Origin: Oscillospiraceae bacterium
Lineage (GTDB): Bacteria; Bacillota; Clostridia; Oscillospirales; Oscillospiraceae
Direction of reading: 5' to 3'
DNA length: 64,000 nucleotides
NCBI GenBank assembly: GCA_045225715.1
Contig: JBGVBS010000015.1
Coordinates: forward strand, 1,001 to 65,000
This document shows positions 43,794 to 56,805 of this stretch, piece by piece. The position numbers and the translations under genes were made by a program. The notes beneath the pieces were generated by a model. That model was not told the DNA's origin and ran no database searches. It worked only from the letters and a program-made list of their open reading frames with translations. The first letter of the stretch is position 1. Each line of letters begins with the position of its first letter.

Positions 43794-43880
43794 GCCGGTG
43801 TGATGGAATTGGTAGACGTAGCGGATTCAAAATCCGCCGATGGCAACATCATGTGGGTTCGAGTCCCACCACCGGCACCA
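43794..43880 (+). tRNA. tRNA-Leu (anticodon CAA), class II with long variable arm, CCA encoded
   Basis: Acceptor stem GCCGGTG/CACCGGC, anticodon stem-loop GCGGA-TTCAAAA-TCCGC, T arm GTGGGTTCGAGTCCCAC, discriminator A and CCA. Confidence 0.95.
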
Positions 43881-43897
43881 TCGGGGAAACCCTTTAG

Positions 43898-43938
43898 GTA
43901 CGCGCTTTTCGGAGACAAGAAAGCGCGTACTTTCTTTT
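43898..43938 (+). terminator. Rho-independent terminator after tRNA-Leu
   Basis: GTACGCGCTT ... AAGCGCGTAC stem followed by TTTCTTTT. Confidence 0.7.
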
Positions 43939-43969
43939 GCCCGTTGCTGTTTTTGACGACCGTTCTCTC

Positions 43970-45163
43970 CTAAGTCCTTTGCGCTTCACTATCTTGACAG
44001 GCGTTAAGAGAGCTGCTGATGTCGATACTTCCCGCCATGGTCGCGCCCGTGTCTTCCTTCGTGGAGATATCAAGGTGAGCGTAGATGTTTGCCGTCGTGC
44101 TGTAATCACTGTGTCCAAGCCATTCCTGGATCTCCTTCATGGGAACGTGGTTTGCAAGCAGAAGGCTGGCGCAGCTGTGCCTGAGCTCATGGAAGGTGAT
44201 CTTGCGCAGATGGTTCTTCTCCAGCATGAGGGCATAATGCTGCGAAACGTAGTTGGGCTTGATCGGTTCGCCGATATCATTTATATAAATGTATCCACTC
44301 TCGTTCCAACAGTTTCCGCACAGCTTTTTGCATTCGTCCTGATGCGCCTTCATTTGGAGCAGAAGCTCTCTGTACTGCGGCACAAGCGGAAGCGAACGGC
44401 AGCTCGACTTGTTCTTCGCCCTGTCCTTTGCGATCACGACCGTCTTCCCGTCCACCCTTGTCTGAACGCGGGTATGCTCAATGGTGATCCTGTTGTTCTG
44501 GAAGTCGATCGAGCGCCAGCGCAGCCCCATGATCTCGCTGCGGCGCAGCCCGTAGAACGCCGCCATCAAAACCGGAAACTCAACGCCGTCCCCGTGGATC
44601 AGTTGAATAAGCGTTTTGATCTCTTCATCCGTATAAAACTGTGCCTGATGCGCTTCGGGTCTCGGCCGGTCAACCTTACTCATGGGATTTGTCAGGATCA
44701 TGTCCATGCGAACGGCATATTTGAGTGCCTTGCTGATGTTCGCATGATAATGGATGATCGTGTTGTTGCTGACCTTGCGGACATTTGAGCAGTAGGCGTA
44801 GAAGTCCTGAATGTGGATCGCCCGAAGTTCTCCGAGCGTAATGCCCCTTTCGCGGAAGTAAGGCGCAATGCACTTTTCTACATTCGTGCTGTACCCGTAG
44901 TAGGTATCCGCTTCCACATTCGGCTTGATCGCTCTAAGCCAGTAGGTCAAAAAATCCGCAAAAAGCATGTCCTGCTCGGGCGACATGACCGGCGAAAGAT
45001 ACTTCCGCCGCTCCTCCTGAAGCATTTTCTCCGCTTTTTTCTTGTTTCCTTTGACCGGAAGCCCTGTTGCTTTCCACGTTGTTTTCCGTCTGCCCTGTGG
45101 GTTCACAAGGCTAAGTACCATATAATAGTAGCCGTTTTTTTCTTGCAGATGGCCCGCTACCAT
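43970..45163 (-). CDS. int: Tyrosine-type site-specific integrase
   Basis: 397 aa. N-terminal SAM-like/arm-binding domain. Catalytic signature HELRHSCASLL ... GHSDYSTTANIYAH (R-H-R-Y family). Confidence 0.93.
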   Translation of the reverse strand: MVAGHLQEKNGYYYMVLSLVNPQGRRKTTWKATGLPVKGNKKKAEKMLQEERRKYLSPVMSPEQDMLFADFLTYWLRAIKPNVEADTYYGYSTNVEKCIAPYFRERGITLGELRAIHIQDFYAYCSNVRKVSNNTIIHYHANISKALKYAVRMDMILTNPMSKVDRPRPEAHQAQFYTDEEIKTLIQLIHGDGVEFPVLMAAFYGLRRSEIMGLRWRSIDFQNNRITIEHTRVQTRVDGKTVVIAKDRAKNKSSCRSLPLVPQYRELLLQMKAHQDECKKLCGNCWNESGYIYINDIGEPIKPNYVSQHYALMLEKNHLRKITFHELRHSCASLLLANHVPMKEIQEWLGHSDYSTTANIYAHLDISTKEDTGATMAGSIDISSSLNACQDSEAQRT

Positions 45164-48994: not shown

Positions 48995-49759
48995 TTATGC
49001 GGCTTTGTTTTTGGGCTTTTCGAGCGTCGTCTGCATACGGACGGTCTTCGTCGAAAAATCCGTCTGTTTGGCGGTACATTCCCCGTGCGTGAGGATGTTG
49101 TAGACCATATCCACCACGGCGGTCGCCGCCGTGATGTTGGCGGCCATGCTCTGGGGATCGGACTGCGACGCCTCGGCGCAGGAAAGCTCCGTGGGGAATT
49201 TGTCGTCCTTGTCACGCAGCAGGGCGGGGTAGACGCTCCCGACCGGCTTTTGCACGGTGCGCCCGCTTCTGCGGACGCCGCACACCACCTGCCCGGAAAA
49301 CTCCCCGTTGCCGCTGTCGATGTAGATCAGCTCCTTCGACTGCATAAACGCCTTATGGCAGACCTGACGAGACTTGTTGTTGTCCACTGCGCCGATCAGC
49401 ACGACCATTTCCTTGACCGTGTGGTATTCTTCCTCATTACGCTTCCAATCCAGCGGCCGGATCAGCTCCATGAGCGTATCCAGCGACTCGATGAAAGCCG
49501 GCACATACTCGGTCTCCATGCCGAACACGCGCGAATACCGCTCCGCAAGCACCTTTGCCTTGTTCAAGCCGAGATCGGCCTCCGAGAAATTCTGCCGCAC
49601 GAGGTTTTTCTGCTCCACGATGTCGCCGTCGCAGATGATAAACCGCGCCGGTCTCTCCAGCGAATAGAGCAGCCGGTAGATGTGCGGCGCGATGTGTCCG
49701 CCCGTGCCCCCGGCGCCGAGCATGACGAGCTTGACGGGGCGCTCCGTGTCAAACTTCAT
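48995..49759 (-). CDS. ThiF/E1-like adenylyltransferase (PRTRC-type ThiF-like)
   Basis: Rossmann motif VMLGAGGTGG, then ICDGDIVEQKNLVRQNF and GLNKAKV motifs of the E1/MoeB/ThiF fold; 254 aa, no E2 or rhodanese domain. Confidence 0.85.
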   Translation of the reverse strand: MKFDTERPVKLVMLGAGGTGGHIAPHIYRLLYSLERPARFIICDGDIVEQKNLVRQNFSEADLGLNKAKVLAERYSRVFGMETEYVPAFIESLDTLMELIRPLDWKRNEEEYHTVKEMVVLIGAVDNNKSRQVCHKAFMQSKELIYIDSGNGEFSGQVVCGVRRSGRTVQKPVGSVYPALLRDKDDKFPTELSCAEASQSDPQSMAANITAATAVVDMVYNILTHGECTAKQTDFSTKTVRMQTTLEKPKNKAA

Positions 49760-50993
49760 GGCGCAGTTCCTCCAGAAGCCGCGGTAAGCTCTTGCCGCTT
49801 CGCACTTTCTCGCTCTTGCAGGTCACCATGCCGCTCCACTCCGAGGGATATGGCTGCTCCAGCCCTTCGATCACCACGTTCGGATCAATCTCGACGAAGC
49901 TGCCGCCGCAGGCGATGCGCGTCATGATTTCCGGGAAAAAGTGGTCGAGCTTGCCGACGACCATATAAAGGCCGGTGCCACGCTCGTCATCATCGTCCAC
50001 GCCGGAGAAAAACGCTTCCATGCTGTTGTGACTGTGGATGTCCGCGTAACGGATATAGCGGTCTTCGTCCTCATACGGGCAGTCCGTGAGATCCGCGTCG
50101 ATCGCTTCTTTCGAGACCGTCTGCTTGGGAACATAGGCAAAGAAGTCCTTTGTCTCCTTGTCCCAATAGATGATCGCCAGCGCCTCGTATTCGCTGTTCC
50201 CCTGCATAAAGGAACGGAAGAAAGCGATGATCTGCCCGATCAGGCGCATCGGGACGCGGGGCAGAGCCGGGATGAACCCGGCCCTGACCTCCTCAAAATC
50301 GACGACCTTGTGTTTGGGGGCGATGAACTCGCCCTGCTCGGTCTTGTGCATCTCGTAGATCTTGCCGTCGCTGCCTGGGAAAAGGCAGATGACCTTATCC
50401 GAGGCCCGCGCGTCCGTCACGGAGACAAACTTCCCCTTGTAGGAAGTCGCCGTACCCTTTTTCTGCATGGTTACTTTCGGCTTGATGAGGCAATCCGGGT
50501 TCTTGTCCTTCGCCTTCTTGAGCGCGTCGAGGAACTCACGGGAGCGTTCGATGGTCTCTTTCATGGAGATGATCGTGGTGCCCTTCGGATCTTTGATCTG
50601 CTTGATGATGCCGCAGTATTCCACGCTCCACGAGACGTTTTTGCCCTCCTCCAGATCGGTGAAGTCCTCAGACTTGCGGATACGAAGCTCCTCAAAGGTC
50701 ATGGAGGGATCGTCGATGGGTTCCTTCGCGTTCTTGTGGCAGAACACGGGCGGCTTCTCAAAAAGCCCCTTCTGCGCGTTCTCCACCGTCTTCTGGGAGA
50801 ATGCCGCCGCCAATGGGTTTTCCGTGGGCGTTTCCTCAGCGGGCTGCTGCGGCGCGGCGGCAGGCTCCGACTCAAACGGGTTTGCGTCGCCAGTGGTCGT
50901 GCTGCTGCCGGACTGGAAGATGCCGTCAAAGTTCAATCCTTCGGCCTCGGGCAGATCCCCAAACGGCCAACTGTTGCTGTTCGCTTCGCTCAT
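49749..50993 (-). CDS. JAB/MPN (JAMM) metallopeptidase-domain protein with long N-terminal extension
   Basis: Complete JAMM signature: E(YEALAIIY) ... HSH-x7-S-x2-D (IHSHNSMEAFFSGVD, encoded about 49995-50036). Start set at MSEANSNSW with a GGGAG RBS; the ORF track start at 51074 is an alternative. Confidence 0.85.
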   Translation of the reverse strand: MSEANSNSWPFGDLPEAEGLNFDGIFQSGSSTTTGDANPFESEPAAAPQQPAEETPTENPLAAAFSQKTVENAQKGLFEKPPVFCHKNAKEPIDDPSMTFEELRIRKSEDFTDLEEGKNVSWSVEYCGIIKQIKDPKGTTIISMKETIERSREFLDALKKAKDKNPDCLIKPKVTMQKKGTATSYKGKFVSVTDARASDKVICLFPGSDGKIYEMHKTEQGEFIAPKHKVVDFEEVRAGFIPALPRVPMRLIGQIIAFFRSFMQGNSEYEALAIIYWDKETKDFFAYVPKQTVSKEAIDADLTDCPYEDEDRYIRYADIHSHNSMEAFFSGVDDDDERGTGLYMVVGKLDHFFPEIMTRIACGGSFVEIDPNVVIEGLEQPYPSEWSGMVTCKSEKVRSGKSLPRLLEELRHEV

Positions 50994-51144
50994 AGGTGTT
51001 ATCTCCCTTCGTGTTTTGGGACAAAAAAAGACCGCAACCGCCCAAAGGCAATTACAGTCACATTTCTTGTCCATATTTGATTTTTCAGGTCATAGTATCC
51101 GGCGGAGGGCGCAATAACCCCCTTTCTTCGCCGTTCCTCCCTCG

Positions 51145-51290: not shown

Positions 51291-51551
51291 CTACGCTGAA
51301 AAGGACGGACGGACATCTCCCTTGATGCCCAGAAGCTCATGCTGCTTGAGTTCCCATGTGACTCTCGTTACTTCCTCAACGAAATAGCGTTCTTTCGCCG
51401 TCGCGGTGTAGTAGCGAATGCCAAATTGCTTGCAAATATCGAACAACAATTCAGTATAGGCGATATTCTCCTTATCCGGCTTTGCAAAATAGCCGCCCGC
51501 TTTTGCTGCAAGATCGTCTAACTCACGGTCAATATCTGCGTTCCTGTCCAT
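51291..51551 (-). CDS. Small acidic protein, candidate immunity/antitoxin partner (86 aa)
   Basis: ATG at 51551 lies 1 nt after the upstream stop and has an AGAGGA RBS. Low GC like its partner. No family recognised. Confidence 0.5.
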   Translation of the reverse strand: MDRNADIDRELDDLAAKAGGYFAKPDKENIAYTELLFDICKQFGIRYYTATAKERYFVEEVTRVTWELKQHELLGIKGDVRPSFSA

Positions 51552-51552
51552 G

Positions 51553-52173
51553 CTATCGTCCTCTTTTGTCAGTCTTGTCAAGCTCCGGCTTGTAGCCAGG
51601 GTGCTCATATATGTACTCGGTATTCCCGGACACCAGTTTTTCTTTTTTCAATACCGTTAAGCTCGGCTGTCCCGCGATGTAGTCCATAATGCCTTCGGCA
51701 AAGATAGAGCGGCAGAAATAGTTTCCGGTATCTTGATCCAGAAACACAAAAAATACAATGTCCGTTTTTGCGCTTTTTACTACAAATTCAGCAGGTATTC
51801 TCGTTCCGCCGCGTACATGGTTTTGATAATAGCGGCAAATACGAAAATCCGAATCCAATCCAGCCTCTAATTGGGTGATGCCAAGCAAGCGTGAACGAAT
51901 ACTGTTCTCCCAATTAACGCTTTTTTCTATGAGGCTGCCGTCTATCGTTCCGTCCATAATTTTTTGCGGCAGCGTGATTTTACGCAGCTCCGATGGGCGA
52001 ACGCCAAAGTCAATGTCATTGGCGTATTGAAAACCGGCAAGGTGGTAAAAATGTTCGGGCAAAAAGTTGAGCGAAATTGACCGAGACCATGTTCCCTTCA
52101 TCCCCAGCAGGAGGCGGTACTCTTTGTCGTATAGGTTTGTCCATGCTATTGCCGCGTCGTTTAGAAGCCCCAT
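51553..52173 (-). CDS. PBECR4-like (phage-Barnase-EndoU-ColicinE5/D-RelE-like) putative nuclease toxin
   Basis: 206 aa. The motif ISLNFLPEHFYHLAGFQY resembles the N-terminal signature I recall for PBECR4-domain proteins. GAGGA RBS. GC visibly lower than its surroundings. Confidence 0.45.
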   Translation of the reverse strand: MGLLNDAAIAWTNLYDKEYRLLLGMKGTWSRSISLNFLPEHFYHLAGFQYANDIDFGVRPSELRKITLPQKIMDGTIDGSLIEKSVNWENSIRSRLLGITQLEAGLDSDFRICRYYQNHVRGGTRIPAEFVVKSAKTDIVFFVFLDQDTGNYFCRSIFAEGIMDYIAGQPSLTVLKKEKLVSGNTEYIYEHPGYKPELDKTDKRGR

Positions 52174-52194
52174 GAACCTGTCCTCTGTGTGTAC

Positions 52195-52383
52195 TCAAAA
52201 ATAGAAGGATACCGCCGAAACGGTATCCCTCTACGTGGTGTTTTCTTTCGGATGGTTGCCCACCCTGAGCCAGTCCGTGGAATCCACCGAACCCTCGTTA
52301 TGGCTCCACAACGAACGGCACGATACCGCGCTGGCCCCGCTCGTTGCTTCTCCGCCGGGGTAACCCTCAAGTGGTTACCTGCT
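52195..52383 (-). ncRNA. Structured ~190-nt leader RNA or sRNA of unknown class, ending in an intrinsic terminator
   Basis: Bounded by a consensus promoter (52390-52418) and a GGATACCG-TTTCGG-CGGTATCC plus U5 terminator (52197-52228). Contains several strong helices, including a GNRA-capped one. No credible ORF. Confidence 0.6.
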
Positions 52384-52389
52384 GATAGT

Positions 52390-52418
52390 ATATTACACTA
52401 TGGCGTAATAAATGTCAA
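52390..52418 (-). promoter_or_regulatory. Consensus sigma-A promoter driving the leader RNA / toxin cassette
   Basis: Minus strand reads TTGACA, 17 nt, TAATAT. Confidence 0.75.
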
Positions 52419-52453
52419 CGAAAAATTGGAAAACAAACTATGGGCAATCGTTT

Positions 52454-54043
52454 TCACACCCTCTCGCTCACGATAGACCTCACGATGTCGTCGCCGGTCA
52501 GCTCGCTGGTGCGGTAGATCTTCTGGCAGAACGCCTGCATGCTGAAATCAAAGCAGGCTTTTCCCTTATCCAGCAGGATGCCGGTCACGGAAAAGTGCCT
52601 TGCGGCCTGTTCCGCGCGCAGCTCCGCGGCAAAGTCCTCCGAAAGCTTGCATTCGCCATCTGTCAGAAATACCACGTCGGCGTTCTCAAAACCGCCGCTT
52701 CTCATAAGCTCCAACGACTGGCGCATCGGCGTTTCAAAGTCCGTGCCTCCGTCCAAAAAGGTCTCTGCCGCGCGGAACTTGTCCTCCGCGGTGTACTCGC
52801 CGGGGCGGAACACGTCTACCTGAACATCGCCGGGATCGGAGAAGTGGATCAGCGCAAAGGCGTGCCGGCCGCTCGCCGCGATCTCCAGCAGCGTCATGGC
52901 GACGGCCTTGCCCCACGCGACGGGATCTCCTCGTGTGGACGCGGATTCGTCGAGGCAGCAGATGATGTCGCCCATACCCTTGAACACCGGCTCGCGGCAC
53001 CGGTACTGCTTGATCTGCTTCGTGCGGTACTTTTGCAGGAACAGAGGCGTCGTCATCGGCGTCGAGAGCATGGCAAGCTCGCTCGTCAGGGCTTTCGACA
53101 GGTCGTTGCCGAGTTCCAGCGAATACTTCTCGCCGCGGCCGTAGGCGTATCCGTTCTTTTTCCCCTGGGCGAAGATTTCACGGAAACGCCCGAGGTAGCG
53201 GGAGATATCCACAAGCTCCTTGCTCTGGCGGACGCGCCGCAGCAGCTCCGTGTTCATGGGGCAACGCGTCATATTGCCCGGCTCGTCGCTCCACGCGGCG
53301 AGGATGTCGCGGGTTTCCTCCGTGTGCGCCTTTGTCGCGGAAAGCATGGCTCCGAGGATGGCGTTTGTTTCATCCTCCTGCCTGTGCAAGCCCACGTCTA
53401 TGATCTGCGATACCGCCTCTACCTGCTTTACCTTGCTCTCCAACTGGTTCGCCGTGCTGACAAGCGCCTTATCCCATTTTTCATCGGGTTCGGGCGACCG
53501 CTCGCGCTCCCGCAGGAGATTCGCCAGATCGTCCGCCCATTCCTGTGCGGAAGCCTCCAGCTTGTCGAGCGTTTCCATGCTCTTGTCGTCGCCGCCGACG
53601 CCGGAAAGCAGATCGTCAAGCTCCGCGGCAGTGCGCCTCGTAAAATCGCTCGCCGCGTCATACGCCAGCATTTCGCGTCCCTCGCAGATGGCCTTGAGCG
53701 TGGAAAAATCGCTTTGCCCGGTCACATGAGAGAGGATGTGCGCGTTGAACTTGCGCGCCATCGCCGAGAGCTTTTCATCGTCGTTTCTGCGCGGGGAAAG
53801 GGAATAGAACGACTGAAACACGTCGCGGGAGAGCGCGGGAAAGCTTTTGAGCTTTCCCGACGCCGCCTGCTCGATCCCGTCCATCTCTTCGTCGCCCGCA
53901 CGGAGGTCTTTGTAGATTTCATCCTCCAGACGCGTCGAACGCAGGATGCGGTCCGTGCGCTCCTTGGGCTTTTTCACCAGCGCACCCACGTTTGCCCACG
54001 CGCTGCGCAGCACGTCGGAAACCGATGTAAACGCTCTTTTCAT
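52454..54043 (-). CDS. von Willebrand factor A (vWA) domain protein
   Basis: C-terminal vWA domain with MIDAS motif DESAS (DxSxS) and LTDGE. The ATG at 54043 overlaps the upstream stop (ATGA); the ORF track start 54076 is a TTG. Confidence 0.85.
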   Translation of the reverse strand: MKRAFTSVSDVLRSAWANVGALVKKPKERTDRILRSTRLEDEIYKDLRAGDEEMDGIEQAASGKLKSFPALSRDVFQSFYSLSPRRNDDEKLSAMARKFNAHILSHVTGQSDFSTLKAICEGREMLAYDAASDFTRRTAAELDDLLSGVGGDDKSMETLDKLEASAQEWADDLANLLRERERSPEPDEKWDKALVSTANQLESKVKQVEAVSQIIDVGLHRQEDETNAILGAMLSATKAHTEETRDILAAWSDEPGNMTRCPMNTELLRRVRQSKELVDISRYLGRFREIFAQGKKNGYAYGRGEKYSLELGNDLSKALTSELAMLSTPMTTPLFLQKYRTKQIKQYRCREPVFKGMGDIICCLDESASTRGDPVAWGKAVAMTLLEIAASGRHAFALIHFSDPGDVQVDVFRPGEYTAEDKFRAAETFLDGGTDFETPMRQSLELMRSGGFENADVVFLTDGECKLSEDFAAELRAEQAARHFSVTGILLDKGKACFDFSMQAFCQKIYRTSELTGDDIVRSIVSERV

Positions 54044-54591
54044 TCCGACGCTCTCCTTTCGGCATTGTGCATCCAAGCAAGGAGGATATCCTGCGCGCGT
54101 TTGCGGTCGTTGCCCAGCTCAGGAAACTCCTTTTGCAGATACGGAACAGCGCCGAGCATATTGGTGACGCCGGATTCCCGGAGCTTATCCAGATATTCAT
54201 AGTATTTCCGCTCTTTTTCCATGTCGTACTCCTCCAATTCTTTCACAGTTTTGCGGACTTTCTCTTCAAAAAAGCGATGCCGCACAAAAATGTCCGCATA
54301 GCAGCCATAAGCGTCGTAATCCTCAATATTGACCTGTCGCAGCCGCGGGTAGTTGCGCCTGTAATAGTCCTCTGAGTTCCAGTCAGTCTTGCACTGCTTG
54401 TCTTCCCGCTGTATCCGAACGCAAAGCTTACAATCGAGCTCTCTTGTTTCAACGTACCATCGGCAAATCAAGTCGTTCGTGCTTCGTCCCGCAAAAAATG
54501 TGTCGTCAACATATTCGCGAGCGAATTGAACGGCTTGTGCAAATTCAAATCCGTCTCTGCATTTGATGATTGCGGACGGCACCATAAACAC
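54040..54591 (-). CDS. Hypothetical protein with DUF5049-like C-terminus (by recollection)
   Basis: 183 aa, GTG start. C-terminal YEYLDKLRESGVTNMLGAVPYLQKEF motif is seen in phage-associated small domains. Confidence 0.5.
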   Translation of the reverse strand: MFMVPSAIIKCRDGFEFAQAVQFAREYVDDTFFAGRSTNDLICRWYVETRELDCKLCVRIQREDKQCKTDWNSEDYYRRNYPRLRQVNIEDYDAYGCYADIFVRHRFFEEKVRKTVKELEEYDMEKERKYYEYLDKLRESGVTNMLGAVPYLQKEFPELGNDRKRAQDILLAWMHNAERRASE

Positions 54592-54612
54592 AGCACTCGC
54601 CTCGCTTTCGCG

Positions 54613-54876
54613 TCAACCGAAAAAGCTTATCGCCTTGTCCGTCAACCACGCCTTGATACCTTCCGGGCATTTGAGAGTGTCTTCACCTCCGCGGCACTCA
54701 AAGTTGCACATCGAGCAGGGGCAAGCCATGTTGCTTTCGATAATCTCCTCGGCGAGCTTCCCGATGAAGCGCATGGTATCCAAGGGGATCTTGCCGCTTT
54801 TGACCTTTTCGGCGCAATCGCCGCAAACCACAAAGCCGGATGAAACGGAAGCGTTGCAGCACATACATTTTGCCAT
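54613..54876 (-). CDS. Cys-rich small protein (zinc-ribbon-like)
   Basis: 87 aa with CMCC, CGDC, CPCSMCNFEC and C motifs. Confidence 0.55.
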   Translation of the reverse strand: MAKCMCCNASVSSGFVVCGDCAEKVKSGKIPLDTMRFIGKLAEEIIESNMACPCSMCNFECRGGEDTLKCPEGIKAWLTDKAISFFG

Positions 54877-54947
54877 AATGCGATTCTCCTTCTCTTGTTA
54901 CTTGCAGGGGAGGGCCGAAGCCCTCCCCATGACATAGCTGTGTTCGA

Positions 54948-55397
54948 TCAGGCGCCGAAGCCGGGATCAAAGCCCTCCGGCACGGCAAAATCGGAAAAAC
55001 CGCCGTCCGCCGGCGCAAAGCTGTCATCCGGCGCGAAGCTGCCATAGGCGGGCGTTTCGTCCTCGCCCTCCTGCTTGGGGCGCGAGTCGCCGAAATACAG
55101 CCGATCCGCGTGGATCTCCGCGCTGCGGCGCTTGTTCCCGTTCTTGTCCGTCCAGGGACGGATCTGCAAGCTGCCGTCCACAACGATCATGCGGCCCTTC
55201 GTGAAATACTTGGCGGCAAACTCCGCGGTGCTGCGCCACGCAACGATGTCGATGAAATCCGTCACCTTTTCCTCTTCCTTGCCGCCATAGTCGCGGTCGC
55301 AGGCGATAGAAAAGCTGCAAACAGCGGTGCCGGACTGCGTGCGGCGCAGTTCGGGATCGTGAGTAAGTCTGCCCATGATAACGATTCTGTTCAGCAT
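54948..55397 (-). CDS. ssb: Single-stranded DNA-binding protein
   Basis: OB-fold N-terminus MLNRIVIMGRLTHDPELRRTQSGTAV and a Gly/Asp-rich tail. Confidence 0.93.
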   Translation of the reverse strand: MLNRIVIMGRLTHDPELRRTQSGTAVCSFSIACDRDYGGKEEEKVTDFIDIVAWRSTAEFAAKYFTKGRMIVVDGSLQIRPWTDKNGNKRRSAEIHADRLYFGDSRPKQEGEDETPAYGSFAPDDSFAPADGGFSDFAVPEGFDPGFGA

Positions 55398-55425
55398 AAT
55401 AGATATCCTCCCAAAAATTAAGTCA

Positions 55426-56805
55426 TTATTGCAGAGCTGTCAGCTCCGCGAGCGGCATGTAGGTGAAGCTCACCGATTCCGCAGCGTCCTTGCTGATCTT
55501 CTCCAGCGTATCCAGAAGCGTCGCCGTCATAGCCCTTTCCGCGTCGGACTCCGCCGCGGCGTCAAGCTCCTGCTGCCTCGCGTAGAGCCGTACCAGCTCG
55601 CCGCGGAGCTTTTGCAGGGCGCTTATGGCGCTGTTCGGGCGCTCTGTGTCGTTGATGCTGTCGTCGAACTCCTCCTTGACCTCATGGGCCATCGCAGCCA
55701 CGTCCGCGACCTTATCCTGCATGGGATTCACGCAAAGACGGTTGAGCACGCTCTCCACAACGGCGCGGTCGCCGGACTTCTCCCACAGGTAGCACTTGAG
55801 GATGAGCATATCCTTCGGCGTCACCTTGTCGCTGCCCTCCAGCCATGCCTTTGCCTGCGCCAGCGGGTAGTAGTTGAGGTACTTTCTGTCGGAGACAGTC
55901 AGATCGTTCCGGCGCAGCTCGCAGAGAATGTCGTCGGCAAGCTCGTTGATGGCGTCGGGGACGGTGATCGCGGCGACCTCACGCTGCATGGCAAGCAGTT
56001 CGTCGAGCGTGATGGTCGTCATGACCTGTCCTGCGTGGCCGCCCTGCTTGTTTTTGAGCACGGCAAGGCGCTTGTCGCGGTCCGCGATGTCCTCCGTCAC
56101 CACCTTGATCTGAAGACGGTCATACAGCGCCTCCAGTATCTTCTCCTGCGGATCGGCAAAGTTGGGTATCTCGTTCGACGCCGCAAAAAAGGAGATGGTC
56201 GGGATGGCGTAGGTGCGTCCCTCGTTGGTGTATTTGCGCTCGTTGAGCGCCATCAACAGCGAGTTCAGCACGCCGTCGTTCGCCTTGAAGCATTCGTCGA
56301 GAAACACGATCTCGGCTTCCGGGATCTTGCCCGCCGTCTGCACGCTCGGCTCGCCGGTGTGATGAATGGCTGCAAGCGCCTTGCGATAGGCGTCCAAATC
56401 CTCCGTTGCGTCCTTCATGGCGACTCGGTTGCCCAAATCGCTCGTGTCCTGCGCGTATTCGTCCGTGATGCGCTCCAGCTCGGCTTTGAGCTTCTGATAG
56501 GCCGGATCGCCCGCAAACGCCGCCTCTGGCACGGAGCCGGGGATGAGGCTTGCAAGGTCGATACGCCCGAAGAGCTGCTCCTCGTCGGTCTGCTTGGAGA
56601 GCAGCCGCTCAAACTGCCGCGCGCCAGTGATGTGCCGGCGAAACAGGTTGATGGAATACGACTTCGCCTGTCCGGGGCGGCCAAGGATAAAGAGGTTGTT
56701 CCGCGTCAGCAGCGCAATGGCGATCAGTTCGGTAAGCTCCTCGCGCTCGGCGACCTCCGCGTTCACGTCCGCGATGACGGCAAGCATCTTTTCACGAAGC
56801 GTCAT
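55426..56805 (-). CDS. MoxR-like AAA+ ATPase
   Basis: Walker A GRPGQAKS and Walker B IVFLDECFKAN; 459 aa with a C-terminal helical domain. Confidence 0.85.
   Translation of the reverse strand: MTLREKMLAVIADVNAEVAEREELTELIAIALLTRNNLFILGRPGQAKSYSINLFRRHITGARQFERLLSKQTDEEQLFGRIDLASLIPGSVPEAAFAGDPAYQKLKAELERITDEYAQDTSDLGNRVAMKDATEDLDAYRKALAAIHHTGEPSVQTAGKIPEAEIVFLDECFKANDGVLNSLLMALNERKYTNEGRTYAIPTISFFAASNEIPNFADPQEKILEALYDRLQIKVVTEDIADRDKRLAVLKNKQGGHAGQVMTTITLDELLAMQREVAAITVPDAINELADDILCELRRNDLTVSDRKYLNYYPLAQAKAWLEGSDKVTPKDMLILKCYLWEKSGDRAVVESVLNRLCVNPMQDKVADVAAMAHEVKEEFDDSINDTERPNSAISALQKLRGELVRLYARQQELDAAAESDAERAMTATLLDTLEKISKDAAESVSFTYMPLAELTALQ

Follow-up and report, generated by a model that had tools for sequence, protein, structure and literature searches.

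The window analysed here is a stretch of 64,000 nucleotides from an Oscillospiraceae bacterium (assembly GCA_045225715.1, contig JBGVBS010000015.1, positions 1,001 to 65,000 of the forward strand). On its minus strand, within positions 52195-52418, a GC-rich structured RNA separates a promoter from a gene of the PBECR4 family. An earlier note, made from the sequence of the window, had proposed that this RNA was either a conditional-termination leader or an independent small or antitoxin RNA controlling a toxin gene, and had been unable to match it to a known RNA family. On the last point it was mistaken. Rfam cmscan of the whole window gave three matches at or above the gathering score, among them the drum RNA (RF02958) at 52233-52357 on the minus strand (68.1 bits against a gathering score of 43, E = 1e-10), which spanned model positions 1-112 of 112 without truncation. 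A score of 68 bits falls in the lower range of the drum family, many copies of which score 80-103. The junction nucleotides UGAAG, GGAGC, GGGUU, CC-C and CGAAAGAAAA were all present in the window and were invariant in an alignment of drum lineages. It is virtually certain that the structured RNA is drum; the locus thus holds a further copy of a family known since 2017 and no new riboswitch. The note had regarded a clear match to a known family with an unrelated role as evidence against its proposal; the match found here is to a known family, but one with no assigned role.

The drum RNA and the PBECR4 gene

The promoter, the 5′ hairpin, the GNRA-capped hairpin, the terminator with its U run, the ribosome-binding site and the start codon that the earlier note had described were all found (Table 1). 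Only one other promoter-like site occurred in 2.5 kb, and the TTGACA hexamer of this promoter was invariant across the subfamily to which the window belongs. The stretch of ~190 nt 3′ of it is poor in open reading frames (ORFs), and the 189-nt RNA folded with a free energy of -81.3 kcal/mol, below all 200 dinucleotide shuffles (z = -4.3). The RNA was also richer in GC than the gene behind it, as the note had observed: GC content was 57% for the transcript, 62% for the drum core, 46% for the downstream gene and 59% for the window. No other kilobase of the window is as rich in AT as the PBECR4 stretch (47% GC), which fits a separately acquired cassette. Drum at this locus is a stand-alone small RNA gene of ~185 nt, transcriptionally autonomous and strongly structured.

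Table 1. Positions of the features of the drum-PBECR4 locus within the window
Feature	Position	Strand	Basis or remark
Promoter TTGACA (52418-52413), 17-nt spacer, TAATAT (52395-52390)	52390..52418	-	sigma-70-type, 10/12 matches; predicted start near 52383
P0, 5′ hairpin GGUAACC-ACUUGAG-GGUUACC	52359..52379	-	family-conserved, outside the Rfam model
Drum core, model positions 1-112	52233..52357	-	covariance-model match
P1, 52357-52354 with 52304-52301, encloses P2	52301..52357	-	Rfam alignment, fold, covariation
P2, GCAACGAGCGG (52347-52337) with CCGUUCGUUGU (52318-52308)		-	Rfam alignment, minimum-energy fold, covariation
P2 apical insert CGCG-GUAU-CGUG, lineage-specific, contains CGGUAUC (52328-52322)	52319..52330	-	Rfam and lineage alignments
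Pseudoknot 5′ strand GCCAG, 5′ side of P2 loop	52331..52335	-	covariation
Pseudoknot 3′ strand CUGGC, P3-P4 junction	52269..52273	-	covariation
P3, 52287-52285 with 52240-52238, encloses P4 and CGAAAGAAAA	52238..52287	-	Rfam alignment, covariation
P4, GNRA-capped hairpin GGGUGG-GCAA-CCAUCC	52250..52265	-	Rfam alignment
Invariant CGAAAGAAAA	52241..52250	-	invariant alignment columns
Intrinsic terminator, 15-pair hairpin (52234-52201) and U run	52197..52234	-	terminator prediction, fold
GAGGA, ribosome-binding site of the PBECR4 gene	52181..52185	-	sequence
PBECR4 gene, 206 aa, ATG at 52173	51553..52173	-	PF18813 match

The protein encoded downstream matched Pfam PBECR4 (PF18813) with 69.8 bits against a cut-off of 27 (E = 5e-19). 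Iyer et al. 2017 introduced PBECR domains as predicted endoribonucleases of the BECR fold with an active site of His and Ser/Thr, occurring alone or within polyvalent proteins of phages and conjugative elements (PMC5512222). An alignment of 37 stand-alone PBECR4 proteins contained the invariant residues H44, R95, D107, S156 and Q169, among others, and the gene product is predicted to be a metal-independent endoribonuclease of this fold. AlphaFold2 produced a model from the protein alignment (A4) with a predicted local distance difference test score (pLDDT) of 89.5 and a predicted template modelling score (pTM) of 0.85. It had two significant matches among viral predicted structures, both without names. 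PBECR4 had no PHROG match, and tblastn gave no match in phage GenBank records.

Conservation of the fold and linkage to PBECR4

Drum copies were gathered with an exact pattern for the invariant core, regardless of neighbouring genes, yielding 39 viral and 53 genomic loci that fell into 39 clusters at 90% identity. One cluster (L050, Thermoanaerobaculia) fitted the DNA pattern without the upstream helices and was excluded as a probable chance match, leaving 38 lineages, of which one representative each was aligned (A2). Pairing was counted on this alignment using the structure written from the window sequence: 83.5% of alignment cells were paired, against 30-38% when the partners were slid by 1-3 columns, and 0 of 500 shuffles attained the observed value. 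All six P0 pairs had changed on both sides. Two helices of the P1/P2 region (helices 3 and 4 of the count) were paired in 91% and 82% of cells, with covariation at 10 of the 11 P2 pairs, P3 was paired in 96.5% with covariation at 3/3, and the GNRA-capped P4 was supported too. The long-range GGCCAG/CUGGCU pairing that the earlier note had listed as possible was recovered as GCCAG/CUGGC; it was paired in 92.6% of cells with covariation at 5/5 pairs, and its four inner pairs were paired in 38/38 lineages with many double changes. On this comparative evidence it is a genuine pseudoknot, linking the P2 loop to the P3-P4 junction. Two other pairings in the note did not survive: the ~10-bp hairpin CCGUUCGUUGU/AUAACGAGGG was mis-paired, because CCGUUCGUUGU is the 3′ strand of P2 and its pairing with GCAACGAGCGG holds in the minimum-energy fold, the Rfam alignment and the covariation analysis, and CGUG/CACG forms no family helix, its CGUG lying in a lineage-specific insert.

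In 20 of the 38 drum-selected lineages an ORF of 190-220 aa began 30-113 nt past the core on the same strand, with the terminator alone in between. The twenty encoded proteins were 25-42% identical to that of the window and 20/20 matched PF18813. The reverse comparison started from stand-alone PBECR4 proteins, comprising 12 lineages drawn from viral contigs, relatives of the window protein, plasmids of Enterococcus faecalis and Streptococcus suis (where the proteins are annotated "PBECR4 domain-containing protein") and five metagenomic or genomic proteins. When one representative of each was scanned, drum lay directly upstream at or above the gathering score in 12/12, and no intact stand-alone PBECR4 without drum was found among them. 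A sigma-70 promoter with 9-12 of 12 matches stood at a fixed position in 24/24 PBECR4-linked lineages, its -10 box ending 70-91 nt before GGAGC, and a terminator followed 4-15 nt past the core in every one. The conserved unit, as read from sequence, is a near-consensus promoter, drum, a strong terminator, a ribosome-binding site and a stand-alone PBECR4 gene.

Clustering of ORFs within 3.5 kb revealed no other recurrent protein family (the next best occurred in 4/25 lineages) and neither a third conserved gene nor a protein antitoxin; the gene after PBECR4 was often convergent. The small ORF 3′ of the window PBECR4 gene (51291-51608) had no similarity to its counterpart in a 79%-identical relative and no Pfam or PHROG match. 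The cassette was found between transposases, between MatE and RecJ genes, within an integrase/relaxase element and next to LysR or HisKA genes; lying between unrelated genes in different genomes, it behaves as a mobile two-part module. Distances between the RNAs and between the proteins were correlated (Mantel r = 0.78, P = 0.0002). At further drum copies (L042, L062, L066 and L086) PBECR4 had decayed, being truncated, split or frameshifted, behind an intact drum, promoter and terminator. In the window there was neither room nor signal for a separate PBECR4 promoter in the 24 nt between the U run and the ATG. PBECR4 would thus be expressed by read-through only, and drum RNA should far exceed the nuclease mRNA. 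On the E. faecalis plasmid pKUB3006-2 (2335-4486 of that locus) an abortive-infection gene of the AbiH family comes after the drum-PBECR4 cassette on the same strand, and SSB and thermonuclease genes lie ahead of the cassette.

No PBECR4 gene followed drum in 17-18 of the 38 lineages. Eight of these lineages carried drum within dense tRNA arrays, co-oriented with the tRNAs, mostly on IMG/VR viral contigs of 39-133 kb. These copies had a promoter in 0/8, no terminator and no PBECR4, and in one group (L001) a tRNA-Ile gene starts 14 nt past the drum core; the core thus functions without terminator and downstream gene. Some genomes contained solo drum genes with their own terminator. Orphan phage copies, for example those of L036 and L044 or of the L002 cluster, have cores with 67-78% identity to the cores of the window-type subfamily. 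A Pfam census of 127 ORFs at 18 orphan loci found no recurrent family and no DUF3800 gene; an AbiH gene lay near one orphan drum.

These copies bring up the alternative that drum has its own role, in tRNA or translation biology for instance, and that PBECR4 merely rides on its promoter and terminator leak for low expression. The frequency of orphan and solo copies speaks for it, as do the eight lineages placed in tRNA arrays beside ROOL, skipping-rope and abiF RNAs, and tRNA or rRNA is a frequent target of BECR-fold nucleases (PMC5512222). Against it, drum was retained upstream of PBECR4 in all protein-selected lineages, from Clostridia and Bacilli alike and with proteins as little as 27-31% identical, while one would expect a gene in need of nothing but a promoter to exchange it; moreover, RNA and protein co-diverge. 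We consider this alternative improbable.

The phage tRNA arrays with orphan drum also carry a group I intron as well as ROOL, skipping-rope and abiF RNAs (sites at L013 9450-10042, L026 6142-6233, L011 165-201 and L016 2489-2738); an abiF RNA motif lies immediately 3′ of drum. RNAs that elsewhere accompany abortive-infection or toxin-like genes are thus seen to cluster with phage tRNAs. In a 24-member viral and prophage cluster (L002), drum is followed by a consensus TTGACA-17-TATAAT promoter and then by a conserved ORF-free stretch of 0.4-0.9 kb (L020, 4080-4990; also L072, L074 and the related L061) with apparent compensatory changes (GCGCC/GGCGC versus ACAUC/GAUGC). It had no Rfam match even at E <= 1 and may be an undescribed structured RNA.

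In the window itself, the cassette sits in an island that starts at a tRNA gene (43794-43877, plus strand) and a phage-type integrase gene (43970-45163, minus strand); this pair (43794-45163) is likely the left end of an integrated element carrying drum-PBECR4. Other island genes encode a DUF6094 methyltransferase with a sigma-70 region 4 domain, a MoxR-type AAA+ ATPase, SSB, a zinc-finger protein (DUF3268), a DnaN-like clamp and a large helicase. Close to the downstream end of the cassette (48995-51074) lie a ThiF/E1-like gene with weak PADLOC E1-E2 matches and a gene for a 441-aa JAB-like protein below the Pfam cut-off, which may together be a ubiquitin-like conjugation and deconjugation pair of the mobile element. 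On the other side, within 52454-56805, a 540-aa protein without a Pfam match but with a match to phrog_24053 (unknown function, E = 2e-50) has a C-terminus that reads as vWA-like and is encoded near the MoxR-type ATPase gene (55426-56805), so that a MoxR-vWA pair may lie directly upstream of the drum promoter. As there is no terminator between the gene for the 540-aa protein and drum, read-through from upstream is possible. A ribosomal protein L10 leader (RF00557, 18144-18272, minus strand, 62.6 bits) lies outside the island in an ordinary chromosomal context.

The proposed antiterminator

The earlier note had pointed to CGGUAUC at 52328-52322 as an exact copy of the terminator 3′ arm and had proposed that it pairs with the 5′ arm to form an antiterminator. 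Were this so, drum would be a cis-acting conditional-termination leader, riboswitch-like or protein-sensing, that lets transcription read through into PBECR4. The copy is real, matching a portion of that arm exactly, and a 7-nt match has a within-sequence P of ~0.03; the RNA does lie between a promoter and a gene, as attenuating riboswitches and leaders do, with an intrinsic terminator at its end. The element resides in the P2 apical insert, which is 12 nt long where the Rfam model has 3 nt, can fold on itself as CGCG-GUAU-CGUG, and is absent from 36 of the 38 aligned lineages.

The closest relatives of the window, fetched through PBECR4 proteins 79, 76, 48 and 45% identical to its own, were aligned over their leaders (A3). 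In one of them (L109) the terminator had changed from GGAUACCG/CGGUAUCC to GGACACCG/CGGUGUCC, a compensatory swap of A-U to C-G within the stem, yet its P2 insert retained CGGUAUC. The inserts of two others (L110, GGA-GAAA-UCC, and L114, GGAA-UGAAAG-UUCC) contained no copy of their own terminator arm. Among ~31 terminator-bearing lineages the 7-nt copy was confined to the window and its 79% relative; the remaining ~29 had copies of 4-6 nt with shuffle P values of 0.1-1.0, at chance level, and one 7-nt case among ~31 lineages is what chance gives.

Constrained folding gave a similar picture for the full transcript, in which forcing CGGUAUC to pair with the terminator cost 15.3 kcal/mol (+15.3) and melted P0 and P2, both of which covary. 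In a transcript that has not yet reached the terminator 3′ arm, the alternative lies just 1.3 kcal/mol (+1.3) above the best fold, a point in favour of the leader; a lineage-specific antiterminator effect is possible at that stage, but nothing supports it. Across the family no conserved, mutually exclusive antiterminator covarying with the terminator was found. Nor is drum consistently placed in a 5′ untranslated region (UTR): 17-18 of the 38 lineages lack a downstream PBECR4 gene and eight are in tRNA arrays. Weinberg et al. (PMC5737381) likewise judged drum an improbable riboswitch that is rarely found in 5′ UTRs. Given drum copies in tRNA arrays with neither terminator nor gene, terminator-arm copies at chance level and an insert that does not respond to a terminator change, the riboswitch or attenuator reading is not supported and we regard it as very improbable. 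The antiterminator model was rejected on the close relatives, the family-wide search for terminator-arm copies and the constrained fold. The other half of the note's proposal, an independent small RNA or antitoxin-like RNA tied to a toxin gene, is consistent with all findings and is the reading preferred here.

Possible roles of drum and comparison with known systems

We tentatively favour, at somewhat less than even confidence, a role for drum in trans as a specific RNA partner of PBECR4, most likely as an antidote that binds and inactivates it. In such a scheme the near-consensus promoter would drive drum transcripts that end at the strong intrinsic terminator, occasional read-through would yield PBECR4, and the terminator would set the ratio of RNA to protein. 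Drum, in large excess, would bind the predicted nuclease in trans and keep it inactive. Orphan copies in phage tRNA islands and solo genomic copies would then be decoy or anti-addiction antidotes.

A related alternative holds that PBECR4 needs drum as a cofactor, guide, activator or substrate, either because the ribonucleoprotein is the active effector or because PBECR4 matures drum. The obligate linkage and co-divergence apply to it equally. A complex conserved fold with invariant unpaired nucleotides suits a functional ribonucleoprotein, the task of drum was suspected by Weinberg et al. to be biochemically demanding (PMC5737381), and the authors who defined PBECR domains proposed offensive roles for them in mobile elements (PMC5512222). 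What separates the two readings is drum without PBECR4: the phage orphan and genomic solo copies work without the protein, and PBECR4 decays where drum stays intact. A strong terminator would also raise the RNA far above the protein, which a 1:1 cofactor does not need, and the 38-lineage alignment contained no hypervariable unpaired segment usable as a guide. The antidote fits better than the cofactor because of the orphan phage copies, the solo genomic copies and the decay of PBECR4 behind an intact RNA, and we consider the cofactor alternative unlikely.

Several points weigh against the antidote reading. We infer the toxicity of PBECR4, its binding by drum and the ends of the transcript from sequence. 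The many invariant unpaired nucleotides and the pseudoknot exceed the apparent needs of a simple inhibitor, and those who described drum suspected a more sophisticated biochemical function (PMC5737381). The copies in tRNA arrays could have a role independent of PBECR4. Co-divergence of RNA and protein is equally expected from simple co-inheritance, and the protein-selected sample consisted only of stand-alone PBECR4 proteins of 190-220 aa retrieved with profiles of drum-linked members. For the protein, a sequence search of the PDB gave no solved homologue, PADLOC has no defence model for it, and Foldseek against the PDB returned nothing significant for the model; the top matches were HigB/RelE toxins at E > 0.3, and this likeness is suggestive only. 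Finally, the tandem short repeats of type III antitoxin RNAs are replaced here by a single ~185-nt drum unit of complex fold.

Drum has been a structurally elaborate bacterial RNA with no assigned function since 2017, and it here gains a near-obligate, co-diverging partner that is a predicted endoribonuclease. The present analysis adds a quantified two-way linkage between drum and PBECR4, the P0 hairpin, the promoter, covariation of the pseudoknot, and the antidote and decoy hypothesis.

Compared with the drum family as described, the window copy shares the full-length model match, helices P1-P4, the invariant GGAGC, GGGUU and CGAAAGAAAA, a 3′ Rho-independent terminator, a specific protein gene nearby and a clostridial or mobile-element setting; it differs in its 12-nt P2 apical insert and low-range score. 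The Rfam model lacks P0 and the fixed consensus promoter seen here. The original description (Weinberg et al. 2017, PMC5737381) groups drum with three other highly conserved motifs that precede Rho-independent terminators, and reports it as compellingly associated with a single protein domain whose gene lies nearby, on either side and in either orientation. PBECR4, which may be that domain, was in contrast always downstream and on the same strand. In later papers drum appears as a benchmark family only, and text searches of the literature for a link between drum and PBECR4 or toxin-antitoxin systems returned nothing relevant.

Two further groups of structured RNAs invite comparison. Attenuating riboswitches and leaders share the arrangement noted above, but drum has no conserved antiterminator, its terminator looks constitutive and it is also found away from genes. 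The DUF3800-I, skipping-rope and abiF motifs are, like drum, structured RNAs each tied to one mobile-element protein family, and the first two were grouped with drum as terminator-followed motifs in PMC5737381. Their folds differ from that of drum, no DUF3800 gene was near drum at any locus examined, and skipping-rope and abiF RNAs adjoin orphan drum in phage tRNA arrays.

The closest parallel in organization is with type III toxin-antitoxin systems, in which a single promoter serves an RNA antitoxin, a Rho-independent terminator that limits the toxin, and an endoribonuclease toxin, and from which phages escape through RNA mimics (PMC5086642). Judged from sequence, the locus falls outside the type III families, because it has no tandem repeats (Tandem Repeats Finder found none in 51900-52600 at a minimum score of 30) and no ToxN/AbiQ, CptN or TenpN toxin, Pfam giving only PF18813 for the window protein and 20/20 relatives. 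It shares with ToxIN, CptIN and TenpIN the order of promoter, non-coding RNA, Rho-independent terminator and endoribonuclease gene, as well as an RNA expected in excess, the lack of a protein antitoxin and a location on mobile elements. That drum and PBECR4 constitute a fourth, structurally unrelated type III-like system, with phage drum copies as decoy antidotes, is a speculative extension that we hold to be somewhat unlikely. If it is true, a single complex pseudoknotted RNA with no repeat array would restrain a BECR-fold RNase, and the orphan drum class would gain its first function. Phage tRNA islands would be collections of anti-defence RNAs (tRNAs, drum, skipping-rope and abiF RNA), and other orphan RNAs of these arrays may be counter-defence decoys. 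The phage-borne drum copies could then be mimics in the manner of pseudo-ToxI.

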